A DNA stretch of 59,888 nt, counting the filler, from Basidiobolus ranarum (lineage: Eukaryota), in NCBI GenBank assembly GCA_040143965.1. It is 2 parts of 2 records of this genome, joined end to end, with 100 filler letters (N's around TTAATTAATTAA, not from the genome) between each part and the next. Parts side by side here need not be neighbours in the genome. Positions count along the whole stretch, not along the records: positions 1 to 29,933 come from JASJQH010006977.1; 1 more part is not named here. The stretch is one strand, 5' to 3'. Every line of letters begins with the position of its first letter. The first letter of the stretch is position 1. Shown in pieces: positions 1,171-57,184 of the stretch. A program made the position numbers and the translations under genes. The notes beneath the pieces were generated by a model that saw nothing but the letters and a program-made list of their open reading frames with translations, did not search any database and was not told the DNA's origin.

Positions 1171-1896
1171 CTAGACTGGGAGAGAAGAACTGGAGGCCCG
1201 ATCCACTATCTAAAATCATAATTAATTTAGAAATGGAATAATAATATTGATTGTAAATAAACTCTAAAAATTCATATTTTCGATGACTTTGACGTAGAAA
1301 CCATGAAAAGTATGCTACCTTGGAGATGAACGGTAAGTTAAACAAGCTGCCAATAATCGGTAATTTACGGAGGAAACTGAAGATAACTGGGAAGAAATCC
1401 CTAAATCCACCCAAACAAAAATATTGAATAGTAGTTCGTGTTGAAGAAACCTATGATAGACGTTACCCAAAAAGATTGATGAAGCCAAATAACTCTATAG
1501 CCATCCCTGTGATCGGCCATTTAATAAGCACTAAACAGATACCTCCCAAAAAGCATACAGTTCCGCGTATCTTGCTTTTTTGGGCAAAGAACCCTAAGGT
1601 CTTTTGTAGACCAATCAGTAGAGTAATACCTGCCAAGAAGAAGAGCTACAAAAAAGAGTAAAATACACGTGATGAATATATTGTCTAGTACAATAGTGAA
1701 TGTGTTGGTCTTACGTTTCCAATAGCCAACAAACCAGCGTCAAACAAAAGAATCATGCCAAGAAGCATGAAAAGACCACCAAAAGCGGTCAAACCAACTC
1801 CGATTTCTGTGTAAGCGAAATGCGGTTACTACAATTGCACAGAAAAGTTGAAATGAAATACAAATATAACTAACTTTGACTGTCAGACAACCACAT
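1171..1896 (-). CDS. GOT1: Golgi transport protein Got1 (Got1/Sft2 family), 5 exons
   Basis: Spliced translation: MWLSDSQK|IGVGLTAFGGLFMLLGMILLFDAGLLAIGN|LFFLAGITLLIGLQKTLGFFAQKSKIRGT...INLFG|DFFPVIFSFLRKLPIIGSLFNLPFISK|IVDRASSSSLPV*. All introns GT-AG. Confidence 0.93.
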
Positions 1897-2126
1897 GTTA
1901 ATTAAAGTAAAAGTAAAGAAAAAAGGCTGAGCAGGTAAGAAAAGCCTCCTTTAGATGAAAATGAGCTATATATGTCAACAAAAATGGTAAGCTTGGCCAT
2001 ATAATTTCGACCAATCATCTTTGATAAAATCACTTCATTACGGAATCACATTTGGGGTAGTATTGTCGAAGTAAACTAGCAAATTAGAATGGTTTGTTTA
2101 TTGGGTGATTAATGTGACAAGAGGAT

Positions 2127-3616
2127 CTACATGCCAACTGAGTAAATCTTTCGAAGTTGCTCAGTGCCAGTGCTCATCAGAGTCACCGGGCAGCATTTGT
2201 ACTCCTCGACATATTTGAAGATACAAGGATAGCAGAACACATATCCAGTTGGTAACATGGTTGGATTGGTTCTTTCACGTTGACAAAGGGGACATTGACT
2301 GCGATCCTCTGGAAGGGGTATTCCATTGGGGTCAGGCTATGAGATAGGTTTATGCATGAGAATGAGTTATAAGACAAAGCGTCAATGCCTATAGGCTTAC
2401 CTTTACAGGCTCTGGTGGAGGAGGAATTGGTTGTTGCACCTGAGTACGGCTGTATTCAGAAGAATACCACCATTCTAAGAATTTGAAGAAGAAAATAGAC
2501 ATTGGGAGGAGAACTTTGAGGAAATCAAATCCTCGCTCGATTCCAGTGAGTACCAAGCGTTTAAGAAGCTGGGTGCGCGACAGGCTACTCCAATTAACTC
2601 CGGGCCGGTTTTGATGCTGGTACATTTCTTTCTATTATCATACAAGGCCAACTGTTAGTGAAGCAGCATAATGAATATGTCTAGTACGCCCTTACATAAT
2701 CACTGATATCTAAGCGACGGACTTGCACCCCGATCAATCGTAACCACGGTGTATAAAATGCCGTACGGTCGTATAGATAGCCAATATTATATCCTAGCGC
2801 AGCCAAGTGGTAGGCGCAATTGATGAAGGGGTATATTGTCTTGAATAACTTCTTGATACGGGCCTTGAATTTCTCTTTACTTGAAAGTTGCTATCCACAT
2901 CAAGCAAAGCCATTATTGATTTATCAAATGTTGAACATGCAGATCGCTATATACATACTTCAGTCGGGCTTTGTGATCTACCAAGAGCAGAAAACTCGTC
3001 TCCAAATAAGAGAGCACCTGAGCCACCACTAACTTTCTCATATAAGCTGTCCAGCTTGCTTTTCAAATAAGGGAGGCCAATCTAAAGTAACTATGTAAGC
3101 TTATCGTCTTTACTCGTCAAACGGTAGGAGTGAACATACAGAAAAAAATAGTGAATTATAAATATCACGCTCGGTTAATTTATCAGATTCTTCAATCTTT
3201 TGTGTTCTCGTGCGTTTCAAGCCATAAAAATTCTCAGCAAAAGTTCCGCCTAGGAAGGAGTTAGTAAATCTGTATTAAGGTTACAGAGCATCATATATAG
3301 TATATTCTACTGACCATATCGTCTCAAGTAATGCCTTTCCACAAAAAACATCACAACATTGAATACTTCTTCAAATTTGTTGACTATTCGAAGAAGGTAT
3401 CGTGGATAACGCTGAGCGTAAACCTGTATTTTTAATAAGAAATTCAATATACTGAAAAGTACTTCAATTTCCAAAATAAACCTTTTATCCAATTACAGTT
3501 AATACGTAGCGAACCGCCGGTTGAAGCATATCACGCATTTTATCTTGAGCTACAAGCTCGAATAATGAGGGACGGTACATGTCCCTATTATCCCCTATAT
3601 TGCTCATGTATTCCAT
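2127..3616 (-). CDS. PEX12: Peroxin Pex12 (Pex2/Pex12 N-terminal domain plus C-terminal RING), multi-exon
   Basis: Starts MEYMSNIGDNRDMYRPSLFELVAQDKMRDMLQPAVRYVL. Internal motifs AQRYPRYLLRIVNKFEE, GGTFAENFYGLKR and LPMSIFFFKFLEWWYSS. RING CPLCQRERTNPTMLPTGYVFCYPCIFKYVEEYKCCPVT. Ends QLRKIYSVGM*. Confidence 0.93.
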
Positions 3617-3840
3617 TTTAGCAGTATTGTTTGAGTAATTAGTAGTGGAAGTATATTTCCAAGCTTAGAGGCTACACACCACACTCTAAACCAACCACCT
3701 GATTTGATTAGTCAGACTATTTCACTTTCAGCTGAAGCTCAACTGATGAGATTATCATTTACTAACTTTAACTCGTCTTGAGTAAATTTGCATTAAACAT
3801 GCTTAAATTAATGCGCAGTAATTTGAAGACCGAAAACCGA

Positions 3841-4546
3841 GTCACGTGGTACGGAAGTGATTTGGATATCTAGAGATCTACATTAGCGCGTGACTGATAG
3901 CATTAATGCGTGAATAGGGAACGGTGGATAACAACATATACGACACACTGCATTAACAGGAGTGATCCTGGATCGACAGAAGAGATTTGATGAAAGGCGG
4001 TGAATAGGGGTGAATAGCGGTGAATAGATCAGCTAGTGAATATGTACTAACCGATGTGAGTTATAATGCGTCATGGGTGGAATAATTTTCATCGACCGTA
4101 AGTCCACCATCACAGCGTCCATTTGGTGCATCTACCTGGTTGACACAGATCACATTGATACTTGGTTGATAAAGCTCCTGACATGTAAAATGAGCATGCT
4201 AGACATCTCGACCAATCCATTTAATCAACGATGGTTGTATCACTTATGAAGCGAAGATATCTATGACTCCCATATCTCAATTTAGTAATACCCTTATAGC
4301 TAAATGTGGAGAAATATTAATTCAACCGATGGCCATATTAGCCATGTTCATATTAGCGAAATCTGGTGAATACGCTTCTGAACTGGACGTGCCATATCGA
4401 TATTAACTCTCTGTAAGATGATCTTTAATTGGTTGAGCCAATGGGAGGTCGAGACATCGATGGTGCCTTATTTCACATGAATCTAGAGAACCAATTAGGG
4501 GCTTAGGAAATGAGCATTCCTTCATGAGTCATGATATCTATATAAG
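3841..4546 (+). promoter_or_regulatory. Divergent PEX12/MTHFR promoter with E-box, AP-1/Gcn4-type site, CCAAT boxes and TATA
   Basis: GTCACGTG 3841-3848; ATGCGTCAT 4066-4074; CCAAT at ~4438 and ~4491; TCATGAGTCATGA 4522-4534; TATATAAG 4539-4546, about 85 nt before the MTHFR ATG. Confidence 0.5.
3998..4027 (+). repeat. Tandem 10-bp repeat (C/G)GGTGAATAG x3
   Basis: cggtgaatag gggtgaatag cggtgaatag, with further GTGAATA copies at ~3910, ~4036 and ~4366. Confidence 0.85.
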
Positions 4547-4627
4547 CGCCACTCCGCCCTTAGCTAAGAACAACTTGGCTCGTTTGCACCCTATTTCGTT
4601 GAAGATTCCTGTTGAGCATTCCATACT

Positions 4628-21699: not shown

Positions 21700-23500
21700 A
21701 TGGCTCAAGAAATTACTAAAGGTGCTGAAAACCTTTCTATTCAGGAAGGTGAGTAATGGTTTCTTCACCTGACTGAATGATCACTTGCCGTACTCTTCGG
21801 ATATTAACCTGTCTTTGATTTTTCTGTTTATTCATTTAGCAACTGTCGTTTTTGTGGACGAAGTTAACGGTTCCGATGAGACCGGAAACGGTTCTCAAGA
21901 GGCCCCTTTCCAAACTCCCGTCGTTGCCCTTCAAAAAGGTGGTGATAACGCTACCGTCAAGGTTCAAAAGACTTCAGAGGAAGGATATAAAGATATCTCC
22001 GGTGCTGCTTTGAAAAAAGCTAAGAAGAAGGTCGAAGAACTCCAAAGAAAAGCCAAGAAGGCTGATGAACAACAAAAATCTGAAGCTGATAAGGTCGCCG
22101 CTCGTGCCGCTGAGGAAGCCAAGAGAATCGAAGAGTCTAAGCAAATCGTTCTTACTCAAGATCCTTCCCTTCCGGAAGCTGAAAAGATCAAAATTCGTAA
22201 TAGTGTGGAATCTCGTGGTAAACGCGTTAAGGTTTCCGGTTGGGTTCATCGTATGAGAACCCAAGGTAAGGATATGAGATTCATTATCCTTAGAGATGGT
22301 ACTGGTTACTTGCAAGTTGTCATGACTGGCAAACTTTGCCATACTTTCGATGCTCTCACCTTAACTATGGAGTCCACCGTCGTCGTCTATGGTATCATCA
22401 ATGAATTGCCCGAAGGTAAAACCGCCCCTGATCATCACGAACTTGTTGCTGATTACTGGGAACTTATTCACAAGGCCCCCGGAGGTGATGAAGCTTTCGG
22501 TAACAAATTGAATGAAGAATCTGATCCTTCCATTCTTTTCGATCAACGCCATCTTGTCATTCGTGGTGAGACTGCTTCCTCTGTATTGCGTGCTCGTTCA
22601 TGTGTTCAAAAGGCATTCCGTGATCATTTCCACTCCCGTGGTTACAATGAGGTTGTTCCCCCATGCATGGTTCAAACACAAGTTGAGGGTGGCAGTACTC
22701 TTTTCGAATTCAACTATTATGGTGAATCCGCATACTTGACTCAATCTTCCCAGCTTTACTTGGAAACTTGCTTGCCCGCTCTTGGAGATGTTTACTGCAT
22801 GTCCGAATCATTCCGTGCTGAGAAATCCCATACCAGAAGACATTTGTCTGAATACACCCATCTTGAAGCTGAAATGGCTTTCATTGATTTCGAAGATTTA
22901 CTCAACAGAATTGAAGATCTTGTATGCGATACCATCGATCGTGTCCTTGCCGATCCTGTTGCTTCTGAATTAGTCAAATCACTTAACCCCGATTTCCAGC
23001 CCCCTCAACGTCCTTTCCTTCGTATGGACTACACTGAGGCCATTGAGTGGCTCCGTGAGAACAACGTCCGTAAGGAAGACGGCACCACCTATGAATTCGG
23101 AGATGATATCCCCGAAGCCCCTGAACGTCAAATGACTGACAAGATTGGTCGCCCTATTCTTCTTCGTAGATTCCCCGTTGAAATCAAGAGTTTCTACATG
23201 AAGAAGGACAAGATTGACCCCCGTGTCACCGAAAGTGTTGATTTATTGATGCCAGGAGTTGGTGAGATTGTTGGTGGAAGTATGCGTATTTCTGATTTGG
23301 ATGAATTACTCGCCGGTTATAAGCGTGAGGGTATTGATCCTACCCCATACTACTGGTTCAGTGATCAACGTAAGTATGGTTCTTGTGAACACGGTGGTTA
23401 TGGCCTTGGTGTCGAACGTTTCCTCGCTTGGATCCTTAACCGTTACACTGTTCGTGAAGTCTGTCTCTACCCTAGATTCACCGGACGTTGCAGACCATAA
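21700..23500 (+). CDS. DED81: Cytoplasmic asparaginyl-tRNA synthetase, 2 exons (intron 21749-21839)
   Basis: Eukaryotic N-terminal extension VFVDEVNGSDETGNGS; OB-fold RVKVSGWVHRMR; motif 2 FRAEKSHTRRHLSEYTHLEAE; motif 3 HGGYGLGVERFLAW; ends YPRFTGRCRP. Confidence 0.97.
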
Positions 23501-26785: not shown

Positions 26786-27721
26786 TCTGTTAGGTCTTGG
26801 AGAAGTGCTGAATATGCTTGTTACAGAGAGGATTATGGACCGTTTTATGGATTCTTCCCTTCGATCAAGTCTATCTATTTTTATTAACAAAAAGGTCATT
26901 CTACTTTACCAAAGACGATCTAGGTATAATTGAGAACATATATTGAAAACAGGGATGTCTTTCTTTGTTTGTCAAAGTGCAAGAAAGTTGATGTTGTTAT
27001 TGAACGCTGTCTATTTTTCATCATTAGATCTCCACAAAAAAAGCAGTTTTGGGAACTTGCTTCATTAAAACCCAATCAGCAACAAATCTGTTTGGACTAG
27101 CTAGTGTTCAGATATTGCCTCAAGTATTTGGAGTTCTGCAAATATAATGAATGTAGAATAGTATCGCATGGCATGGTAAAACCAAACCAATCGGTGGCGG
27201 TGTTTCACTTATAAATAAACGTGAATTACATTTGGCTTTTCCGAGTGGATATAGTCAAATTCAAGCGGATCCATATCTCGAAACCCGTCCAATTGAGATT
27301 TTGTCGTGGTTCGTTGTAGAGCGGTATAGTATTGAGAAACGGTACTGTATGCATTTGAGGAAATTTGGCAATTATTAGAAACAGTACTAAAAATTAGCAA
27401 AACACCACAAATCGCGTATTTGTAAATCATATGTAAAGAATCACCAGCTTATGCCTAGTATAGAAACTAGTGGGGAGCACTCGTAGCGACTCCAATAATT
27501 CGTCCGATAGCACTTAGCGATAATACTGTATGTAAGTATCTCGCCAACCACTGCTAAGAGTTAGGATCCTATACGCGACGACAAAAAACCTGAGAAAATA
27601 TTGCTACAATTGTAAAAACCTGAAACCATGCGCACAAATAGCCTACAAAGGCCTCTGTTTGCGTTTACATCCATGAGTCAACTTGTAAACGAAATATTGT
27701 ACAAATATTAACGAATCAAGC

Positions 27722-27769
27722 GGTGAGAGATGAGAGGTGAGAGATGAGAGATGAGAGGTGAGAGATGAG
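27722..27769 (+). repeat. 7-bp minisatellite (GAGAGAT/GAGAGGT)n
   Basis: ggtgagagatgagaggtgagagatgagagatgagaggtgagagatgag. Confidence 0.85.
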
Positions 27770-28892
27770 TTAGAGTTCAACTGATTGCAACAGAAATTGT
27801 AATATCAGGTTCAGAGCTGACAGTTGCAAATTAAACAGCAACCACATGGGTACGCTTTCAGAAATGTTAACAGATGTTGTTGAGACATAGAGGGATGGAT
27901 CTGTTTAATTCATAAACTTAACCTCTGTCCAGTAGTAACGGTTCACTGTTATCTCATCCGTTCACCATATAACCCAATCTCATATTAGCTCTCGTAGTCT
28001 TAATACTATTTGATAATGAACTGGTTATGCCGACACGGCAAATGCTTGGCAAAGTGGCGCGACTTTACTGCAAACATCGTAGAAACCCGAAAATCATAGT
28101 AGGCTACGTATCTATTTTTATGGCAAACTTAACTAAGGTAATTTGTTAAGTTTCCAGTACCGTAAATACTATTTGTAAGATAACTTTGTGAAGGAGGAAA
28201 CAAAAAAGACAGTGCATACACATTTATCCGTACATAGTCTTCGGTGAGACTAAAATTAACTCGATCAGATTATTTCACTCTTATATCTTTACCAATGGCA
28301 AGTAGATTAGAGTTAGGAGAGCCCAAATGCTTATATTATTAGTGAAGGTCGAGGCTAACTGTCCACATTGCTAATTCTTGGTGTTACTCGTCTTGCGAGG
28401 AATTCAAGCAATCCGCATCAATTTCTCACAAAATTGATTAAACGGAGACAAATTATTAACTATCAATTTCAAATTGAACCACACACATACTTATTATTAG
28501 AGCGTTGTCCATTCTGGGTTAGACTCGATCGCGATCCTCTCTTATCAGTTGTAATTTCAATTCCTAATTTTCGATTGGCCAATCCTAAATGGTTTAATCC
28601 ATATATTAGAATCCTATATTCCTGAACATCTGCGGAATATCTAGTCATTTCATTTCAAATCCAATGCAACTTCCAGGAACTTCAAAGCTTCATAACGATA
28701 GTCCTTACCATATATATAAACACTCAAAACAGTGGTAATAACTATGCTCTTATATATATAACAAATCAGTGACGTCTTTATGGATGTTGATTAAAAAATC
28801 ACAATATACAAACGAGTTCGGTTCCGACTATTCGGTCAAGGTCAGGGTTGTTATTTGTAGCATTTACAATACTTGATTAGTGTTCTGATTTA

Positions 28893-28943
28893 GATTTCCA
28901 ATGTATATCTGTGTGATTTCCAATGTATATCTATGTGTGATTT
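28893..28943 (+). repeat. 22-24-bp tandem duplication downstream of the Fanzor relic
   Basis: gatttccaatgtatatctgtgt / gatttccaatgtatatctatgtgt / gattt. Confidence 0.85.
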
Positions 28944-29024
28944 AGACAGTGTTTTAGTCTGAAATGAGATGAATTAAAAAAATCAATGGGACAATCACAA
29001 AAAATTGGTTTCTTGTAAATTAGT

Positions 29025-29933
29025 TTCTTTGGCTGTCATTTTTCTCATTCTGACTCCTCTATTGGGCTCATGATACTTTACATTTCCAGTCAACCAGTTA
29101 CCAAGTATTAATATAGTATCATTCCCAAACTTCTCTCGAAGATTCTTGCCAAGCCATTTGTCTGATTGTTGTTGGTTAATGAAACTTGAGAGCTTCATTT
29201 TTCTAAAAGGTAACAAACCGCTGGTACGCCAGTCTTCTCCTGCAGGGTGATCTTCATTTGAGTAATATGCTCTCAAGACTGGAGTAGTTTTGACTTTTCT
29301 TGAAGATATTTGACAAACATGTCTTTTTTTGGCATTTGAAGATTTCAAATGTGATAGGGAAAGCTCTGTTGCGATGACTTGGTCTGTCTTTAAGTTCTCT
29401 CTGAGCTTCCTGAATTTTCTGTATTTGTTTCAACCACTTTTTGGTTGCTTGTATATCAGTAAACCATTTTGTTCTCAGCAGTACTTTCTTTGTGCATACA
29501 GTACAGCAAATCACAATGCCCAGGATCCATTAGCACACATTTGCCAACATTGGCCTTCAACTCTTCTCTTCCCAACTTCTCCACTTACTGAAGCCTCTCT
29601 TTTGAAGCAAGAGACTTTGACTTTGTACCACTGCCACCACTACCCTTCTTCTTCATGTAGCTTCATTGCCTTTGATGTGACATTAATAACAGTTCCCCAT
29701 ACTGCTTCTTTGTCCAAATGGCTGGTGATAGAATTCTCCAAAATTTGAGTATTTATCAGTTGTCCTGTAGGATGGTATGAAGCCCCTTCTTGACAGAGAG
29801 CAGTTGAATAGTTTGTTTTGGAGAGCTTTGCACATGCTTGACAGTCTGGCATACACCTTTATATGCTTCTAAGGGTTGCTTTTGCAGTTGTAATAGATAT
29901 TGAAATTATTTAGGGAGAAATATTGGTCTGGCC
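29025..29933 (-). pseudogene. Degenerate Fanzor1 (eukaryotic TnpB-like RuvC nuclease) gene fragment of a DNA transposon
   Basis: Stitched minus-strand translation: IYYNCKSNP*KHIKVYARLSSMCKAL..LFNCSLSRRGFIPSY / LDKEAVWGTVINVTSKAMK / *VEKLGREELKANVGKCVLMDPGHCDLLYCMHKESTAENKMVY*YTSNQK / RKFRKLRENLK / LPFRKMKLSSFINQQQSDKWLGKNLREKFGNDTILILGNWLTGNVKYHEPNRGVRMRKM. This contains RuvC-I (DPG) and the GNW..G...HEP..G..MR block typical of fungal Fanzor1. Several stops and frameshifts; the 5' part is cut by the contig end. Confidence 0.85.
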
Positions 29934-30033
29934 NNNNNNNNNNNNNNNNNNNNNNNNNNNNNNNNNNNNNNNNNNNNTTAATTAATTAANNNNNNNNNNN
30001 NNNNNNNNNNNNNNNNNNNNNNNNNNNNNNNNN
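29934..30033. other. Artificial contig-joining linker (N44-TTAATTAATTAA-N44)
   Basis: 100-nt spacer with a six-frame-stop palindrome at 29978-29989. Confidence 0.95.
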
Positions 30034-31648
30034 AATATTAGGTATGAATTAAGATGCGCTGGTTGAATTCGAGTTCCCAAAAGTTAGAATCTGGTAGTAT
30101 CATAGCACAAGACCTTGTTTCATTATAATAGAGATAACATACCTGTATTCTAGATTTGAAGCATAAGTACCATTGTGGTGAACTCAGATGTGTTGGTTTA
30201 CATCACACCTAACCAGTCAAATCGAAATTCCTTTAATCTTGGCAATTATACAAAAAACCCACTCGCTGGGCCTCTAATCAAGCTAATCTAACAGTATTTA
30301 AGTATATAACTTGTGAGTGGCATGGGTTAGGTTGGTTTTATTGATCTTCTCTGTTGATCGTTTGTATCTGCACTTGTTACAATGGTTTTTTTCAAAACTA
30401 ATCCGAAGAGAAATATTTACGTCCAGTGAGTTGCAATCCCACAATTAAATATCATCGCAATCTAGGTTCAAAATCAAGGGATCATTCTCACTAGAAAATC
30501 AATTCTCAGTAGGAAACTTTTACCTGTTATTTTATAATAACAATTAGTTTTCAACATGATGTAATCAGGGCGACATTACTCACTTGTGATTAAATCCCCC
30601 AGGTGAGCTCGGATTGCAACCCGGGTAGTTCACCGTTTACTGACTTGAGAAATCACAATCTACCATTTATCAAACATGTGAACATAACCAATATTAATTC
30701 CAAATAGAATACAATCGTTGTGTAGCCTATTCATTGTAGAATAGCACGATGTTAACCAATTTTGAATGAAGAAACGGCAACTGGAATGTAGTGTTGTTCG
30801 ATATAAGTTAACTCTACTGTCTTGTTTCACTAATATAACTGGAAGTGTAGAGAGGATATAATCCTTTCTCCAATGGATATATATTCTACTATGTTTCGTT
30901 CTTAGATTATTACTTTATTGATATAAGTCATTTCCTTCGGTTTCTTTTGGCAAGAGCCTTGGACCGATCACCAAACATGGCTCAGAATGCAGTACTTGTT
31001 TCCAATCAGAAAGATAGGTACTTGAAGTTACAAATCCTCAATCTTTCAGACCTCGATTCAAGTTCGATGGTCTTAGGCGTAGGTCAACTGCCATCATGGT
31101 TGATTGATCGAATCCGATCTCGACAGAAATCTACCATGATGATTACATCAGTTAGGGACATCATATTGAGCTAACGCTCCTGATGAGAAAAACTGGGAAA
31201 TTAGATAGTTAATCTGAGTTTGATTTTACCGTTCGAAACAATATTTGGTCCTTAGATAAAAATTAGAAGTTGTTTGCAGGTTTAAAAATCAGTTGGAGTG
31301 CAATATTTGCTAATCATAAAGTTGAACATATATTACTTTGGATTCATCACCGTGTTTGAAGAGTATCTTAATCAAGTACAGTAACAAGTTATTTCTCTAT
31401 CTAATTTATAAAAGCATCACAGATATTCTCTTTTCTAGTTAGTAGCTCATTTACGATTTAACGAATGAAACATTAAGTCATGTTGGTATTACCTGGTGAC
31501 TCATGTAGTACATGACTGTTTAGTGCTTAGGGTGATGATGAATATCCAAATGAATTCCAGCACCAGGGTTTTATGATAAAACGCCGCAATTCACGTTAGA
31601 GTATGCTTTAACATTTTAGGTTAATTCTGCTAGAGTGTGAAGTTCAAC

Positions 31649-32287
31649 ATGCCTAATGCTCCTTTTGACTACAACCTTCCATATACCACCCTCAATCTTC
31701 GTGAAGCTCCACACCTGTATCACATTGGTATAGGTGAGCAGGGAGTTCTTTTAGTTGAACCCTACAAATCTGAACTACTCCCTTTATGGCGTTTTCGTAC
31801 ACCTGACATTGCACGTGAATCCTCTCAAAGTCTACAAGCTAAATTTGAAGAATATAAAAAAGTTGGGGACTTCATTGGAATGGATATGGCTCGTAAGTTC
31901 ATTCAAATGGGTGTTACCAGATCAAGACGATATGCGAATCACAAAGGAGGTAGAAAATACAGAAAAGCTAAAGAGGGTGAGGTTATTATGGGAAAGGGGA
32001 AGAGAGCTAAAGAAGGGAAAATTGAACTTCCGAGAGATACAGAAGATCCGGTGAAAGCTGAATCAGCCAGAATCTTCGGCGAAGTTTTAAAACTGGTGAA
32101 AGACGATAAAACCTACCAAGAGTTAACGAAGAAACACAGAGACATGTATGAGACTGGACCAGGAGTGGAAGATTCAAGCACCAAACAGGAGAATGGCGTA
32201 AAAAAGCGAAAAGTAGCTCAAAAGGCTGTATTTAAACAGTCAAATGCTAAAGTACCTCTAAGGAGAAGCCCCCGAGGAAAGAGATAG
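31649..32287 (+). CDS. DUF4385 family protein, intronless
   Basis: GEQGVLLVEPYKSELLPLWRFRTP...GDFIGMDMARKFIQMGVTRSRRYANHKGGRKY...KAESARIF. ATG at 31649. Confidence 0.88.
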   Translation: MPNAPFDYNLPYTTLNLREAPHLYHIGIGEQGVLLVEPYKSELLPLWRFRTPDIARESSQSLQAKFEEYKKVGDFIGMDMARKFIQMGVTRSRRYANHKGGRKYRKAKEGEVIMGKGKRAKEGKIELPRDTEDPVKAESARIFGEVLKLVKDDKTYQELTKKHRDMYETGPGVEDSSTKQENGVKKRKVAQKAVFKQSNAKVPLRRSPRGKR

Positions 32288-33430: not shown

Positions 33431-35719
33431 TCAAGACCCAACTGATGTTACTATGACTGAATCCTTACTAAATTCGGCGCATGGTGGGCTCAGTAATTCT
33501 TTCTTGAGTGCTTTACGAGAGCGGAATTTTTTGCCGTTAGTTTTGTTTACCAATCTATACAAACTGAAGAAAGCCAGAGAGATACATGCTACCCACAGAA
33601 CGAGCAACATGAGGATATTGCCTGCGATTGAGAATCCCCCATCCAACGAAAGAGCCTGTAGTTGCTGTTGACCAACAGATTGGCCGTGAATTACCAACCC
33701 ATCGAACTGATTCTTGGTTAGCGCAGCAAAAGAGTACTTGATAGGAGATATCCACTGAATCCAAGCAAAATAAGCGGGTGCTGATTTGTTGTTCACCAAC
33801 AGACCACCAAACATCATCAACGGCAATACTATGGCTGGAGTAATCGCTAGAGCTATCTGAAGTCTTTTGAATAATGAGCCCAAAAGGATACCTAGAGCCG
33901 CACCGCATAGAGCAACCAATATATTGACTATAACGTAAATGAAGAATTTACCCGCGTCAGCTTGGAACCCAATCATCCAGTAGGTAATGGAAGAAAATAT
34001 GATTGGCATGATAATATTGATTGGAAGCTCTACGATGATTTTCGAAAAGAAATAAGCGCTCAAGCCATAGTATCCACCACCATGCTCTCGTAAAAATACA
34101 TTTCTCTCGTCAGAAAAAACCGAGATGGTTGGCATAGCAGTGGAGAATAATTGATTCGTCCCAGCAAGAAACAGGGATCCCGCCATATCCTGCAACTGTG
34201 CCGATACCGAGTCTTTATTAGGGATCCTCAAGTAAATCAACCCCACTAAGAGAGCAAAGAAGATAGTTTGAAAGAGCTTGGCTCTGAGAATCAACTTGTT
34301 ACGCAGGGCATTTCTACCTGCACGCTTGAGTAGATATCGGAACTGCGTTGTAAAACTACTACGATATTTGAACATTTTGGAGGTAATGGGAACTAAAAGT
34401 GGTTGATTTGTGGCCTCTTCAACCTCCTCAGCTAACGAGGAAGTCTTCCATGCATGAAGCACGCTTTCCAAGCGAGAAGCCTCCCCCTTCTCAGCTATTT
34501 CCCTTGCCTCAGCACTCTCATTAGCTTCGGGGTCAAACCGAAAGAGTACGTTCATGAAAATAAAATCGGCTGGATTGGTGTACAACGGACATGAGTACCC
34601 AATAGAGCCATAATATTCAACGGCTTTATTGGTTTCCCCAGAAAAAGTAATCTAAACAAACATCATTAATGAAATCCAACGAAAGCTTCATGTGTTCTGC
34701 TATACCTGGCCATCCTTTACGATCATCACGTCGTCAAACATGTGGAAGATTTCCGAGGAGGGTTGATGCATTACTGCAACTACCGTGCGCCCGCTCTTTG
34801 CTAATACCTTCAACGTATGTACTACCATGATAGCAGTATAGGCATCCTAAGACAAATTTCAGAACTAGGCCTGACAACTAGGAAGCACGAGAAAACCTAC
34901 CAATCCTGAAGTGGGCTCATCCAAGAACAGAATGGATGGATCAGTGACCATTTCCATAGCAATAGCAACACGCTTTCTCTCTCCGCCTTACCAAGTATTG
35001 GTGAGTTAGAAATTAGAAATATACAAGAGATTGAAGCATCACTGGTTACCTGAGACGCCCGTCCTGGTAGCGGTACCAATGATGGTATCGACAGCATTTT
35101 CGAGTTGAAGTAGTGATAGAACCTCGTCTAATTTATCATTTGCGGACGCATCGTCCATGTTCGGTATTCGGAGTTTAATGGACATGAGGATAGCCTCACG
35201 TACGGTCATTGTACCCAGAATCAAGTCATCTTGGAACACGAAGCCCGAAACCAATCGTATGGCTGAGCCGCTGACCTTTCTGCCGTTTGCGTAAAGTTTT
35301 CCACCTACTTTTCCACTTGAAGTAGCGCCAGCCTGATAATCTGGGTAAATGTGACTGAATAGTCCTACATATACGAATAGATATACTCACCAATACGTTG
35401 AGCAGACTGGTTTTTCCAGAGCCACTTGGTCTAATTGAGAAAGTAAACGCGAATATCATGAACAACATGCAAGTAAAACGAAACATTCAATATGATCACC
35501 ATACCCCAAGATAGCGGTCAAACGACCAGGTTGAAAGGTGGCAGTCAATCCCTTCAGAATGAGTTTCTCTTTGGTGGGATTTTTGGCAAATAAAGATTTC
35601 TTTTTGTCGCCTGATGGGATTTGAACAGAGTAAGTGAGATCTTTAAAGGTGATTTGTATGGGCTCAGCGAGAGTCTTCTTAGTCATTGCAATCGCACATT
35701 CTTCCTGAGCTTTCTCCAT
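33431..35719 (-). CDS. ABCG (White-like) half-size ABC transporter, 7 exons
   Basis: Walker [18 protein letters not shown]-loop GFVFQDD; signature [15 protein letters not shown]; Walker [17 protein letters not shown]-terminal six-helix TMD ([21 protein letters not shown]). Confidence 0.95.
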
Positions 35720-35986
35720 TAGAGAGAGTGATAGGAAATGAGAAGTTAGTTACAGAGGAATGGTGTATAATATTCAATGTGGGGGAGTGTGGAGGGAGTT
35801 CCTTTTTATAAGTTCCGCGTGAGTAAGGACCCAATAAGGGATTTCTTTTCGCTCATCTCTGCCATCATGATTTCGGTAGTACATGCTCTATTTGTATATG
35901 TCAATGTCTTACCTCAAGCTCAATGTAGATTCGAACTTTTCGGATAAAAGGCCATTCTTTCTGTATAACCACAAAGTAACCTCTGA

Positions 35987-36704: not shown

Positions 36705-38411
36705 ATGGCTCACCATTATCGTTCTGGGGGCTCTCTTCCATCCTACCCTTCGCCAACAGTTGTAGGGGTGCATTTTAGAGTGGGAAAGAAAATTGGTGAA
36801 GGCAGCTTTGGTGTTATCTATGAGGGTACGTTTTCTTTGATCTCTACTTTCAGTATATGTATCCAGCGTTGTTTTGGTTGAACTTGTTTTAAAAGTCTTT
36901 TTTTAAATAGGGGTGAACCTCATCAATAATCAACCTATCGCCATTAAATTTGTATCTTTTTTGACGGTTTAATAGTTTACTGTATATAGTTTATTTGAAA
37001 TGCATGTCATCTATTCCTTAATTCAAACAACCCACTGTAAGGAACCACGTAAAACGGACGCTCCACAACTTCGTGATGAATTTCGAACCTATAAAATCCT
37101 GGCGGGAACTCGTAAGTTCATTTTTGATTGTTTAGAAGACTAAATACACATAACTTATCACAGTCACCCTAAATCATATGTTAATAGCGGGAATTCCTTC
37201 AGTACATTACTTTGGGCAAGAGGGAATGCACAACGTTCTCGTAATAGATCTCTTGGGACATAGCTTGGAAGATCTATTTGATATCTGTCGAAGAAAATTT
37301 AGTGTCAAAACTGTCGCAATTCTTGCGAAGCAGATGGTATGCCATCTCCCTATGATATGAGTATTCTATTGGAAACTTACTAGATACATGATGTAGATCA
37401 CTCGAGTTCAAGCTGTCCATGATCATAATCTCATCTACCGTGATATTAAACCTGACAACTTTCTTGTTGGTAGACCACACACGAAATATGCTAATTTTGT
37501 ATATATGGTTGATTTCGGTATGGCCAAAATATATCGTGACCCCAAAACTATGCAACATATACCGTACAGAGAGAAGAAAAGTCTGAGTGGAACTGCTCGG
37601 TACATGAGCGTGAATACACACTTAGGACGAGGTTAATATTGAACTCAGTGGATGTGCATTCTCGAATACTAATCTCTGATAATCTTTACAGAACAATCAC
37701 GGCGAGATGATTTAGAGTCGCTTGGGCATGTTTTCATGTACTTTCTTCGTGGGTCACTTCCTTGGCAAGGCCTTAAAGCGGCTACCAATAAACAAAAATA
37801 CGAAAAGATTGGGGAGAAGAAGCAAACTACACCAGTAAAAGAACTTTGTGAAGGGTTTCCTGGTTCGTTGATTTTATGAATACTGATTGGTGATTTCCCC
37901 CACAAATCTAACATTCTCTATAGAGGAATTTGGTACTTACCTAACCTACGCTCGTAAGCTTGGATTTGAGGAAACTCCAGATTATGATTACCTGCGTGGC
38001 TTGTTTGATCATGTTCTCCAAAACATCGGGGATCAAAACGATGATACGTGCGATTGGATGTTAGTAGATAATCGAGGCCGACTTGAGAGCCATGAACAAA
38101 AATTACGTCCAACAGATGTGACTCGACTTAACACTGCTAGAGGTACTACATCTCAACGGCAGAGCGATCGCTATTGGCAAGGGAACCTTGAAGCGTCTCG
38201 TACTTCACACCAGCACAGCTCCTCGCACCCTAGTCGCACTAGAGTCAACCCTTCGGCCAATCAACAATATATTCACGCCAATCACAAGTATTCTGGCAGA
38301 GTGGAGAGTGGCCATCCTCGTATGCAAAGCACAGTTCCCCCTTTAACGAACAAAAAAGGATTCTGGGAGAAGATTGGGGAACTTTTATTGTGTAGATCTT
38401 GTACTAGCTAG
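36705..38411 (+). CDS. Casein kinase I (Yck/CK1-gamma type, C-terminal Cys for palmitoylation), 7 exons
   Basis: [83 protein letters not shown]; ends LLCRSCTS. Confidence 0.96.
36952..37041 (+). other. Candidate U12-type (minor spliceosome) GT-AG intron in CK1
   Basis: 5'SS GTATCTTTT; branch site TTCCTTAAT 37014-37022; no polypyrimidine tract. Removal restores AIKF|EP. Confidence 0.7.
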
Positions 38412-55975: not shown

Positions 55976-56797
55976 GGTTTCTGAGAATATTGGGGGTGAA
56001 GTTCAAGAAGAAGAATAGACTGACTAAAGAAATACAGCTAACTATAGGTTTGTAAATTTATATGATGGCCAGGCAAAAATCACAAGCTTGCTTCGGAACA
56101 AATACAGAATAAATCAAGTCGAAAGTGAACAAATTCCATTCCAATCAAATTTTTTAGGGCGGCCACTTTAAAAGCCACTCTGATGAATATATACAATGTT
56201 TTGAATAGATGATACTTTATTACCCCAAGAATCCATTTCTAAACCTATTGACCAATAATCTTTCTCTATCACCGAATTCGGTGATCATATATCCCTAACC
56301 CCTAAGCAATATATACTTGTCGCAACATGAGAGAGCCCTCTGTGATTTGCCTGAACAATGGTGAGAAGATATGATAGCCATAGTAAAAATCACCATTGAA
56401 ATAAGTTTATTGCTAGCATTAGTGTCATGGAGCTGACTAAATCTTCTTTTCCTCAGCTCTACTAATGTAGCAATAAAGATTGCTGTCTCATCATTTAAAA
56501 TCAAGTGTAGTCTTTCAGGATGAGAAGCAATATGTTGATAGTGGATTGAATTAGAAAACATATTGACTGCAAGTAACTATGACATAATATGGTTTTCAAG
56601 CAGTAGAAGGCAGATCTAAATGGTTTCTGAGAATATAGAATCAAGAGTTTGAAATGGTAGTCAATGAATAATATCCCGAAGACTAGGTACACTCCCACTC
56701 ATCACTTTTTTTGAGGTGCCAATATATCTGCATTCATTGCATGATTCAACTTCACGTTTAAAGAATAACCTCAGAGATATTCCCTTGAACAAACGAA

Positions 56798-56893
56798 TTA
56801 TCTTAACTGATCACATAACCTTCCTTATATCTATGGAGTATATATTTATCTTAGCTGATCACATAACCTTCCTTATATCTATGGAGTATATAT
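56798..56893 (+). repeat. 48-bp tandem duplication
   Basis: ttatctta(a/g)ctgatcacataaccttccttatatctatggagtatatat x2, one mismatch. Confidence 0.9.
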
Positions 56894-57184
56894 AATAGTT
56901 TCACTACTGAAAACTTTACTATATCAAAATGCTAATGATTTGCTAGACTCTAATGAGTATTGTAATAATTTAATACAGCGTAAGAACTGATCATCAAAGT
57001 TACATCGCGTCTCCATTGGTGGCTGATAGTGTTCGTAGTTGCCTTAACTTTCTCGCTACCCTATACCTAACCACCATGAGATACGGACAATCAAAGTTAA
57101 ATGAAAACCGAAATGTACTAAGCTTGTTTCTGATTAACGAGCAACTAATCCAAATTTTCGGAGTTTTTTATCCAAGATATCTTA

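Follow-up and report, generated by a model that had tools for sequence, protein, structure and literature searches.

Here we describe the end of a contig of the fungus Basidiobolus ranarum (JASJQH010006977.1, assembly GCA_040143965.1), where minus-strand positions 28947-29928 hold a broken copy of a DNA transposon that carries a gene for the nuclease Fanzor1. What is left consists of the tip of the element and a remnant of its open reading frame (ORF). Positions count along the window, by which we mean the whole stretch of 59,888 nt that was analysed, two contigs joined end to end. Two references recur throughout: P0002, a 577-aa protein of Rhizopus arrhizus, and L001, one of six reference loci obtained from a scan of metagenome contigs and used as a stand-in for ROr-3, a transposon of Rhizopus oryzae. 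The features of the broken copy, hereafter the fossil, are these:

28945..28946, minus strand: dinucleotide TC in place of the expected TA target-site duplication, as read from the sequence, with the 5' side off the contig
28947..28992, minus strand: tip of the 3' terminal inverted repeat, identical to L001 4533-4578 at 36 of 46 nt and ending ..AAAACACTG
28993..29024, minus strand: deletion junction, 32 nt without recognisable homology; all three reference loci cease aligning at 29025 (blastn)
29025..29928, minus strand: Fanzor1 ORF remnant in six frame pieces with three in-frame stops, its 5' side cut by the contig end
29525..29527, minus strand: GAT codon of the RuvC-I Asp in ..VLMDPG.., aligned to the D of ..VLIDPGRRD.. 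in P0002
29640..29643, minus strand: site of a 79-nt (36 + 43) deletion, from the DNA alignment to L001 and the protein alignment to P0002
29934..30033, no strand: artificial spacer (N run, TTAATTAATTAA, N run), whose linker occurs once in the window

The ORF remnant corresponds to aa 111-439 of P0002, or to about residues 254-582 of the ROr-3 protein (720 aa), and 214 of 302 aligned residues (71%) are identical to P0002 in a protein-guided, frameshift-aware alignment. The same alignment places in-frame stops at 29871-29869, 29587-29585 and 29458-29456, and at least five frame changes, near 29757, 29657, 29422, 29324 and 29287. An earlier reading of this DNA, made without database searches (the sequence-only reading), had quoted a series of peptide blocks, all of which are present on the minus strand within 29025-29928, both in the sequence and in the translated frame pieces: ..IYYNCKSNP*KHIKVYARLSSMCKALQNKLFNCSLSRRGFIPSY..; ..GKCVLMDPGHCDLLYCMH..; and ..FRKMKLSSFINQQQSD..LREKFG..ILGNW..GNVKYHEP.RG..MRKMTAKE. 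That reading also had the frame split into three ORFs. The frame is indeed broken, but the pieces number six, since the 144-aa ORF, on which several searches below are based, conceals a compensating pair of frame changes near 29324 and 29287.

Three catalytic positions are expected in such a nuclease, and the RuvC-I Asp is the sole survivor; in the accessible part of Bao & Jurka (2013, PMC3627910) it is the first D of the Fanzor/TnpB motif D..[TS][TS]..C4..RD. The 79-nt deletion takes out about 27 residues, the ..FRGTIYTDGVGVSVLKQSYDT.. / ..FRGTIYTDGVGVSV.. or 'TDG' segment, which is invariant among relatives (alignment columns G213-Q227). Homology then stops at 29025, directly after ..MRKMTAKE and nine residues ahead of the RuvC-II Glu. 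The segment holding this Glu and the [TS][TS] residues (..LLDEFRTSS..) was not found, and at E <= 10 the window has no match to P0002 aa 440-577 beyond chance. Both the C4 zinc finger (the TNB domain) and the RuvC-III RD/ND are absent as well, lying within 647 bp deleted relative to L001 3886-4532. The sequence-only reading had called the copy dead, apparently without its 'TDG' segment and with RuvC-II, the zinc finger and RuvC-III gone after MTAKE; every part of this is confirmed, the first loss by the deletions of 36 and 43 nt near 29640-29643, the later ones by tblastn, blastn and the alignments, and the verdict itself by these losses together with the stops and frameshifts. The copy is non-functional, its nuclease centre and its guide-RNA region both having been lost.

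The assignment to Fanzor1 is secure. When 7 of the 24 relatives described next were used as tblastn queries, 7/7 matched this place and nowhere else in the window, with E down to 4e-73, and the window contains no second copy: the remaining alignments of the P0002 search at E <= 10 are chance matches, with E of 0.42 or worse. With the 144-aa frame as query, 179 candidates yielded 24 proteins at E <= 0.001, the best of them at 3e-47, and the 21 of these that have a named source all come from Mucorales (Rhizopus 9, Pilaira 7, Helicostylum 4, Thamnidium 1). Matched against the solved Fanzor1 chain of Parasitella parasitica (9cf0), the frame gives E 1.2e-15 and P0002 gives E 1.6e-140; P0002 also matches the Fanzor1 chain of Spizellomyces punctatus (8gkh) at E 3e-50. 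The name Fanzor1, first proposed from the peptide motifs, is therefore correct. P0002 carries the full motif set, ..IDPGRRD.., ..LLDEFRTSSLCPSC.., ..LLRCKNQQC.. and ..LWNRDMAA...

A profile built from 13 relatives matches 3591 representative proteins at E <= 0.001, 2170 at 1e-10 and 649 at 1e-30, so that the family is a large one. Its N-terminal part bears the Pfam name DUF8286 (PF26935). Pfam searches with the three largest frames of the fossil gave nothing apart from a chance match to BrxA (E 0.12), and those with six full-length relatives gave only a sub-threshold match to the Cas12f1-like TNB domain, in P0019. Two Rhizopus gene models among the relatives have unusual make-up. P0005 joins the C-terminal third of a Fanzor to about 370 unrelated residues without a Pfam match, and P0148 has Ribosomal_S24e (PF01282) beside DUF8286; both are probably gene-model fusions across element borders.

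The transposon family itself was already described in 2013. According to the accessible part of Bao & Jurka (2013, Mob DNA 4:12, PMC3627910), on which all our statements about the printed ROr-3 depend, this element of Rhizopus oryzae RA 99-880 is 2862 bp long and present in 16 copies, with 133-bp terminal inverted repeats that end CAGTG...CACTG and a TA target-site duplication. The printed consensus begins CAGTGTTTTAATCTAAAATG.. and ends ..CATTTTAGATTAAAACACTG. Its Fanzor protein, 720 aa long, is encoded in two exons, and the entry there names no transposase. By eye, the printed protein is nearly letter for letter P0002 from its residue ~143 onward, and on this comparison with the printed segments P0002 represents the ROr-3 protein in a gene model shortened at the N-terminus.

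Our use of L001 as ROr-3 is based on its length, the length of its inverted repeats, its TA flanks and a by-eye match to the printed consensus. The L001 element spans 1723-4578 (2856 bp, against 2862 for ROr-3) with TA on both sides; its inverted-repeat arms, 1721-1855 and 4446-4580, are 135 nt long and 89% complementary. The coding sequence (2569-4038 + 4098-4358, with a 59-nt intron) specifies a product identical to P0002 but for two residues (aa 73 and 446). Upstream of this ROr-3 copy, L001 908-1234 holds two inverted repeats of 43 nt that match perfectly (975-1017 / 1192-1234), along with a related third arm at 908-940; together these could be a small element of the miniature inverted-repeat type.

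Against L001 2880-3885 the fossil shows 80.8% DNA identity over 890 aligned nt, a borderline value next to the family threshold of ~80%, and at 81% it borders on what usually counts as the same family. In blastn, window positions 29898-29025 align with L001 2923-3885 at 77-80% identity and with L002 and L003 at 84-85%. Over 247 nt shared by all, identity to the fossil is 84-85% for L001-L003, and 91-93.5% for these three among themselves. The fossil thus resembles ROr-3 in its protein, in its DNA (~81%, measured on L001), in its 3' terminus ..TTAGA(T/C)TAAAACACTG and in a Fanzor1 frame that points to the 3' inverted repeat. It differs in its host, Basidiobolus, in its broken frame, in having lost all of its CpGs and in having TC for TA; it also lacks 647 bp internally, and the 5' 1.2 kb of the element lies past the contig end. 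Only ~950 of the 2862 bp of an intact ROr-3 remain. As a Fanzor, the fossil is an ordinary new wrecked member of this family.

The 3' end of the element could be located. In blastn the fossil tip matches L001 4542-4595 and L002 906-943 and, inverted, the 5' repeat at L001 1769-1724, and the fossil end ..CTAAAACACTG is the same as that of the printed ROr-3 consensus. Alignment shows L001 and L002 to be identical up to the end of the tip and to diverge from each other directly beyond it, which marks 28947 as the true end of the element. Because this inverted-repeat tip follows at 28992-28947, the loss of the C-terminal part of the protein is an internal deletion and not an end truncation. The deletion corresponds to L001 3886-4532, 647 bp by blastn, alignment and the coding map of L001. 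It has removed three features of the protein (RuvC-II Glu, CxxC zinc finger and RuvC-III) together with the stop codon, the intron and the bulk of the 3' non-coding region. The fossil has kept 46 nt of the 3' inverted repeat, with its CACTG terminus; the remainder of that repeat has gone with the deletion, and the 5' repeat falls outside the contig.

On its other side the fossil runs into the end of the contig. This end, also noted by the sequence-only reading, is real, being formed by the run of N around the TTAATTAATTAA linker at 29934-30033. As the spacer between the two contigs is artificial, the DNA past 30033 is not a genomic neighbour of the fossil. The linker has stops in all six frames. 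A search of 26900-29933 for direct, inverted and tandem repeats revealed no element structure, only a 22-nt duplication beside the element end, and a blastn comparison of the 2-kb flank with the rest of the window found no repeat. The duplicated 22-nt unit, GATTTCCAATGTATATCTGTGT, stands in tandem at 28893-28943, a few bases outside the 3' terminus, and has no match in the reference loci. A microsatellite, (TGAGAGA)n in 6.6 copies, lies at 27724-27769, between the last Basidiobolus gene and the fossil.

Two Fanzor1 proteins of solved structure allow the remnant to be compared with known systems. PpFz1 of Parasitella parasitica (PDB 9cf0-9cf3; Xu et al. 2024, Cell, PMC11423790) is a homologue, likewise a Mucorales Fanzor1 with the same REC/WED/RuvC order. 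Unlike the fossil it is active, and its chain contains about 100 residues (986-1092) without a counterpart in P0002 or the fossil, where ~12 residues join ..YYSNED.. to ..LLPFRKMK.. instead. SpuFz1 of Spizellomyces punctatus (PDB 8gkh; PMC10432273) belongs to the same protein family and, like the present case, has derivative Fanzor-element copies in its genome. The accessible part of that report describes 'ghost' loci which have kept the guide RNA (ωRNA) and inverted repeats and lost the protein gene; the fossil is the reverse, with part of the gene kept and the region from ORF end to repeat deleted.

According to the available portion of Saito et al. (2023, Nature, PMC10432273), characterised Fanzor1 loci have the ωRNA in the stretch from the end of the ORF to the right-end repeat, and the interval from ORF end to inverted repeat is the one deleted in the fossil. 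No fold signal relative to shuffled sequences was obtained for the final 79 nt of L001, L002 or the fossil (z -0.19 to -0.29; fossil -0.28). Rfam returned a single match on 26900-29933, a chance one with E 0.6 and far below the gathering score, and none on L001. The 46-nt terminal stretch was considered as a surviving guide-RNA scaffold, an idea prompted by the very short scaffold of PpFz1, and was rejected, as nothing supports it. As a separate by-eye observation on the accessible portions of PMC3627910 and PMC10432273, the printed 3' part of another element, ROr-1, resembles the P. parasitica ωRNA (..CCACCAA(A/G)GTTATCGCTTTGGTCA(A/T)TTAAT(G/A)CAGGTA..). This stretch comes directly after the ORF, ~170 nt inside the element terminus, and the guide RNA of ROr-1 and of such Mucorales elements may accordingly end inside the transposon and not at its tip.

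The phylogenetic position of the fossil was determined in two steps. Of 122 labelled family proteins, 64 could be aligned by BLASTP with the read-through of the remnant over 270 columns or more; with the fossil, P0349 and P0270 they made up 67 rows. In a quick tree of these rows the fossil and P0349 form a pair (Shimodaira-Hasegawa-like approximate likelihood ratio test, SH-aLRT, 99) that is sister to six R. arrhizus/delemar rows (96), with 98 for the joint branch. A careful tree was limited to 37 rows by omitting 26 that belong to more distant clades, as well as P0270, P0182, P0177 and P0018. It gave support of 100/97 to the fossil with P0349, 96/96 to the Rhizopus clade and 100/98 to the branch uniting them. 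All of the lineages that branch off next (R. microsporus, Gilbertella, Helicostylum, Pilaira and Thamnidium) are Mucorales. The order of the fossil pair relative to R. microsporus, Gilbertella and Helicostylum was not settled in the careful tree, and we thus describe the placement as inside the Mucorales crown of the family and not as inside Rhizopus. A tree constrained to group the 26 Mucorales ingroup rows to the exclusion of the fossil pair was worse by 29.3 log-likelihood units and gave p 0.020 in the approximately unbiased (AU) test, the group having been picked after the tree was seen. The element tree is incongruent with the host tree (union 100/98; AU p 0.020).

P0349 is the closest relative of the fossil, with 77% identity over 141 residues, compared with 73% for P0002. 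It is a fragmentary gene model of 195 aa with an unrelated N-terminus of 34 residues, and it keeps the TDG segment. The two share subfamily-specific stretches such as ..GSSGTKSKSLASKE.. and ..YYSNEDHPAGED...

Basidiobolus, by the accessible part of Wang et al. (2023, PMC10079182), is the earliest branch of Zoopagomycota, shares genes with Mucoromycota and has acquired bacterial genes. The host identity of the contig, and a yardstick for the divergence of the element, were provided by a gene 5.5 kb from the fossil:

21860..23497, plus strand: asparaginyl-tRNA synthetase (AsnRS) gene, on the same contig as the fossil

The encoded protein is 100% identical to a Basidiobolus ranarum protein, 93% to that of B. 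meristosporus and 67.5% to that of Rhizopus arrhizus. We compared this one host gene with the Fanzor segment, both measured against R. arrhizus (for the segment, against P0002):

R. microsporus: AsnRS 91%, best Fanzor segment 71%
Gilbertella: AsnRS 86%, best Fanzor segment 62%
Helicostylum: AsnRS 85%, best Fanzor segment 64%
Thamnidium: AsnRS 85%, best Fanzor segment 57%
Parasitella: AsnRS 84%
Syncephalis: AsnRS 67%, best Fanzor segment 44%
Coemansia: AsnRS 62%, best Fanzor segment 44%
Basidiobolus (fossil): AsnRS 67.5%, Fanzor segment 68.6% (71% in the frameshift-aware alignment)

With AsnRS as the sole host gene, the similarity of the element is far above the level of the host gene; within Mucorales, a Fanzor identity equal to that of the fossil goes with an AsnRS identity of 91%. 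Mismatches fall on the three codon positions at 16.1, 15.5 and 26.0% (chi-square p 0.0013) and comprise 116 transitions and 55 transversions, a codon-position pattern which indicates that part of the divergence arose under selection and a large part neutrally.

The state of the CpG dinucleotides bears on where this divergence was acquired. The observed/expected ratio of CpG is 0.11 in the fossil. It reaches 0.92 in the 2-kb flank and 0.78 in the L001 element, and the remainder of the two contigs scores 0.72 and 0.71; of 293 windows of 600 nt scored along the full stretch, the fossil is the lowest. None of 25 L001 CpGs is kept in the fossil: 12 have become CpA, 7 TpG and 6 something else, while the other dinucleotides are each kept at 50-85%. 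This pattern is the signature of methylated-CpG deamination, or of some related process directed at repeats, to which the element was exposed but its flank was not. It suggests that the copy aged where it now lies, and it also speaks against a recent mix-up with DNA of Rhizopus, whose ROr-3 copy shows no depletion. The next CpG-poorest places are 1-1000, at the other end of the same contig, and 56000-57000, with observed/expected ratios of 0.14-0.35 and G+C of 0.30-0.35. Neither shows a transposon-like frame by eye. They may be repeats of some age or simply spacers rich in A+T, and do not provide a control for methylation in the host.

Since the fossil lies in a Basidiobolus contig and is yet close kin of Rhizopus copies, we consider it probable that it is the relic of a horizontal transfer of an ROr-3-type transposon from a Rhizopus-like member of the Mucorales into the Basidiobolus lineage, followed by decay in place. 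An intact ROr-3 encodes no transposase, only Fanzor1, an ωRNA-guided RuvC nuclease of the TnpB lineage, which, by analogy with SpuFz1 and PpFz1, would take up RNA made beside its own gene and cut DNA matching the guide. The TA duplication suggests that the element would have been moved in trans by a transposase of the Tc1/mariner type. Once passed from a Rhizopus-like Mucorales into the Basidiobolus lineage, the copy would have decayed where it stood, probably while methylated, with the reference CpGs mostly turning into TpG or CpA. What the copy retains today is the REC/WED part and the RuvC-I strand only. As a transfer between fungal phyla, the case is a reasonably well-supported candidate that is as yet unconfirmed.

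Several observations weigh against this interpretation. The fossil is a single copy in the last stretch of a short contig, the kind of place in which assembly errors and collapsed repeats tend to gather, and TC, not TA, adjoins its terminus. Among the trees, the unsettled order of the fossil pair and the choice of the AU group after the fact both count against it, as does the closest relative, P0349, which carries no organism assignment. No Basidiobolus-named protein occurs among the matches listed (120 of 241 family hits). In the 9 text-searchable files of the supplement to Saito et al. (2023), the part covered here, 'Basidiobolus' appears 0 times and 'Rhizopus' 30 times. These two results provide no independent sign of the family in Basidiobolus, and our literature search found no paper that pairs 'Fanzor' with 'Basidiobolus'. 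Finally, in the portions of the literature covered, nothing was found that establishes CpG methylation of repeats in Basidiobolus; B. meristosporus is reported to encode a CDCA7-family protein (bioRxiv 10.1101/2023.01.30.526367, in its accessible part).

It is possible, if rather doubtful, that the history in Basidiobolus went further than a single relic: an ROr-3-type element may have crossed into this lineage, multiplied there and been silenced at its CpGs, and copies in a better state of preservation, or even intact, may persist along with their guide RNA. Such multiplication, if true, would explain both the break of the assembly inside the element and the existence of P0349. The sequence-only reading had taken that break to suggest a multicopy family, with intact loci that may lie elsewhere in the genome; P0349 is the one hint in this direction. 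If true, this history would be the earliest documented passage of a transposon with an RNA-guided nuclease from one fungal phylum to another, as far as our literature searches reach.

The position at a contig end raises the question of an artefact, in which the last 1-3 kb would be contaminating Mucorales DNA, with a degenerate ROr-3-like copy, misjoined to a Basidiobolus contig. The artificial spacer next to the fossil, the lack of a demonstrated second copy in Basidiobolus and the exclusively Mucorales origin of the named relatives all fit this account, and the fossil's G+C of 0.38 fits either genome. The contig, on the other hand, continues from Basidiobolus genes through 2 kb of unique flank to the tip of the element, with no repeat that could have mediated a false join. 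DNA divergence of ~15-19% from the three Rhizopus-type reference copies shows that the fossil is not one of those copies. Moreover, 0/25 CpGs are kept, whereas the Rhizopus-type copy has a CpG observed/expected ratio of 0.78 and, in the accessible part of PMC11258239, 5-methylcytosine is described as low in Mucoromycota in general, Phycomyces excepted. We regard a misjoin as improbable.

Transfer may also have been real and have gone another way, either from the Basidiobolus lineage to the ancestor of R. arrhizus/delemar or into both from a donor or vector that has not been sampled. As such a course would have it, the fossil pair stands beside the R. arrhizus/delemar clade as its sister and is not nested within it, and Saito et al. 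(2023, PMC10432273, accessible part) regard the transfer of Fanzor between eukaryotes as likely, with viruses and fungi as possible vectors. That the next branches out are all Mucorales places the home of the family in Mucorales, and a scan of viral contigs with two patterns matched 32 stretches of which 0 were confirmed as relatives; we judge either variant very unlikely. Vertical descent of an unusually conserved Fanzor1 family from the Basidiobolus-Mucorales ancestor can draw on the presence of DUF8286 (PF26935) Fanzor1 in both Mucoromycota and Zoopagomycota (Coemansia, Syncephalis) but is scarcely credible, as a pseudogene with 16% change at codon positions 1 and 2 cannot hold 81% DNA identity where AsnRS stands at 67.5%, the sampled Zoopagomycota copies are 44% identical, and the trees and the AU test put the fossil in the Mucorales crown.

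With transfer from a Rhizopus-like Mucorales into Basidiobolus as the preferred interpretation, the value of the fossil lies in its host, Fanzor1 elements and their wrecks being common in early-diverging fungi. A Rhizopus-type element in Basidiobolus is a concrete and checkable candidate for the transfer of a transposon between fungal phyla. A part of Mucorales Fanzor1 elements in gene transfer from fungus to fungus has been the subject of speculation (Xu et al. 2024, PMC11423790). The total loss of CpG beside an undepleted flank further makes the locus a natural record, on a small scale, of cytosine methylation targeted to repeats in this lineage, or of a related mutational defence. Because the nuclease and the guide RNA are gone, the fossil itself has no use in genome editing.

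The second contig of the window, inspected by eye, appears to contain ordinary fungal genes: a DUF4385-like ORF (31634-32287), a multi-exon ABCG-type transporter (33431-35749) and a casein-kinase-like C-terminus (37887-38411).

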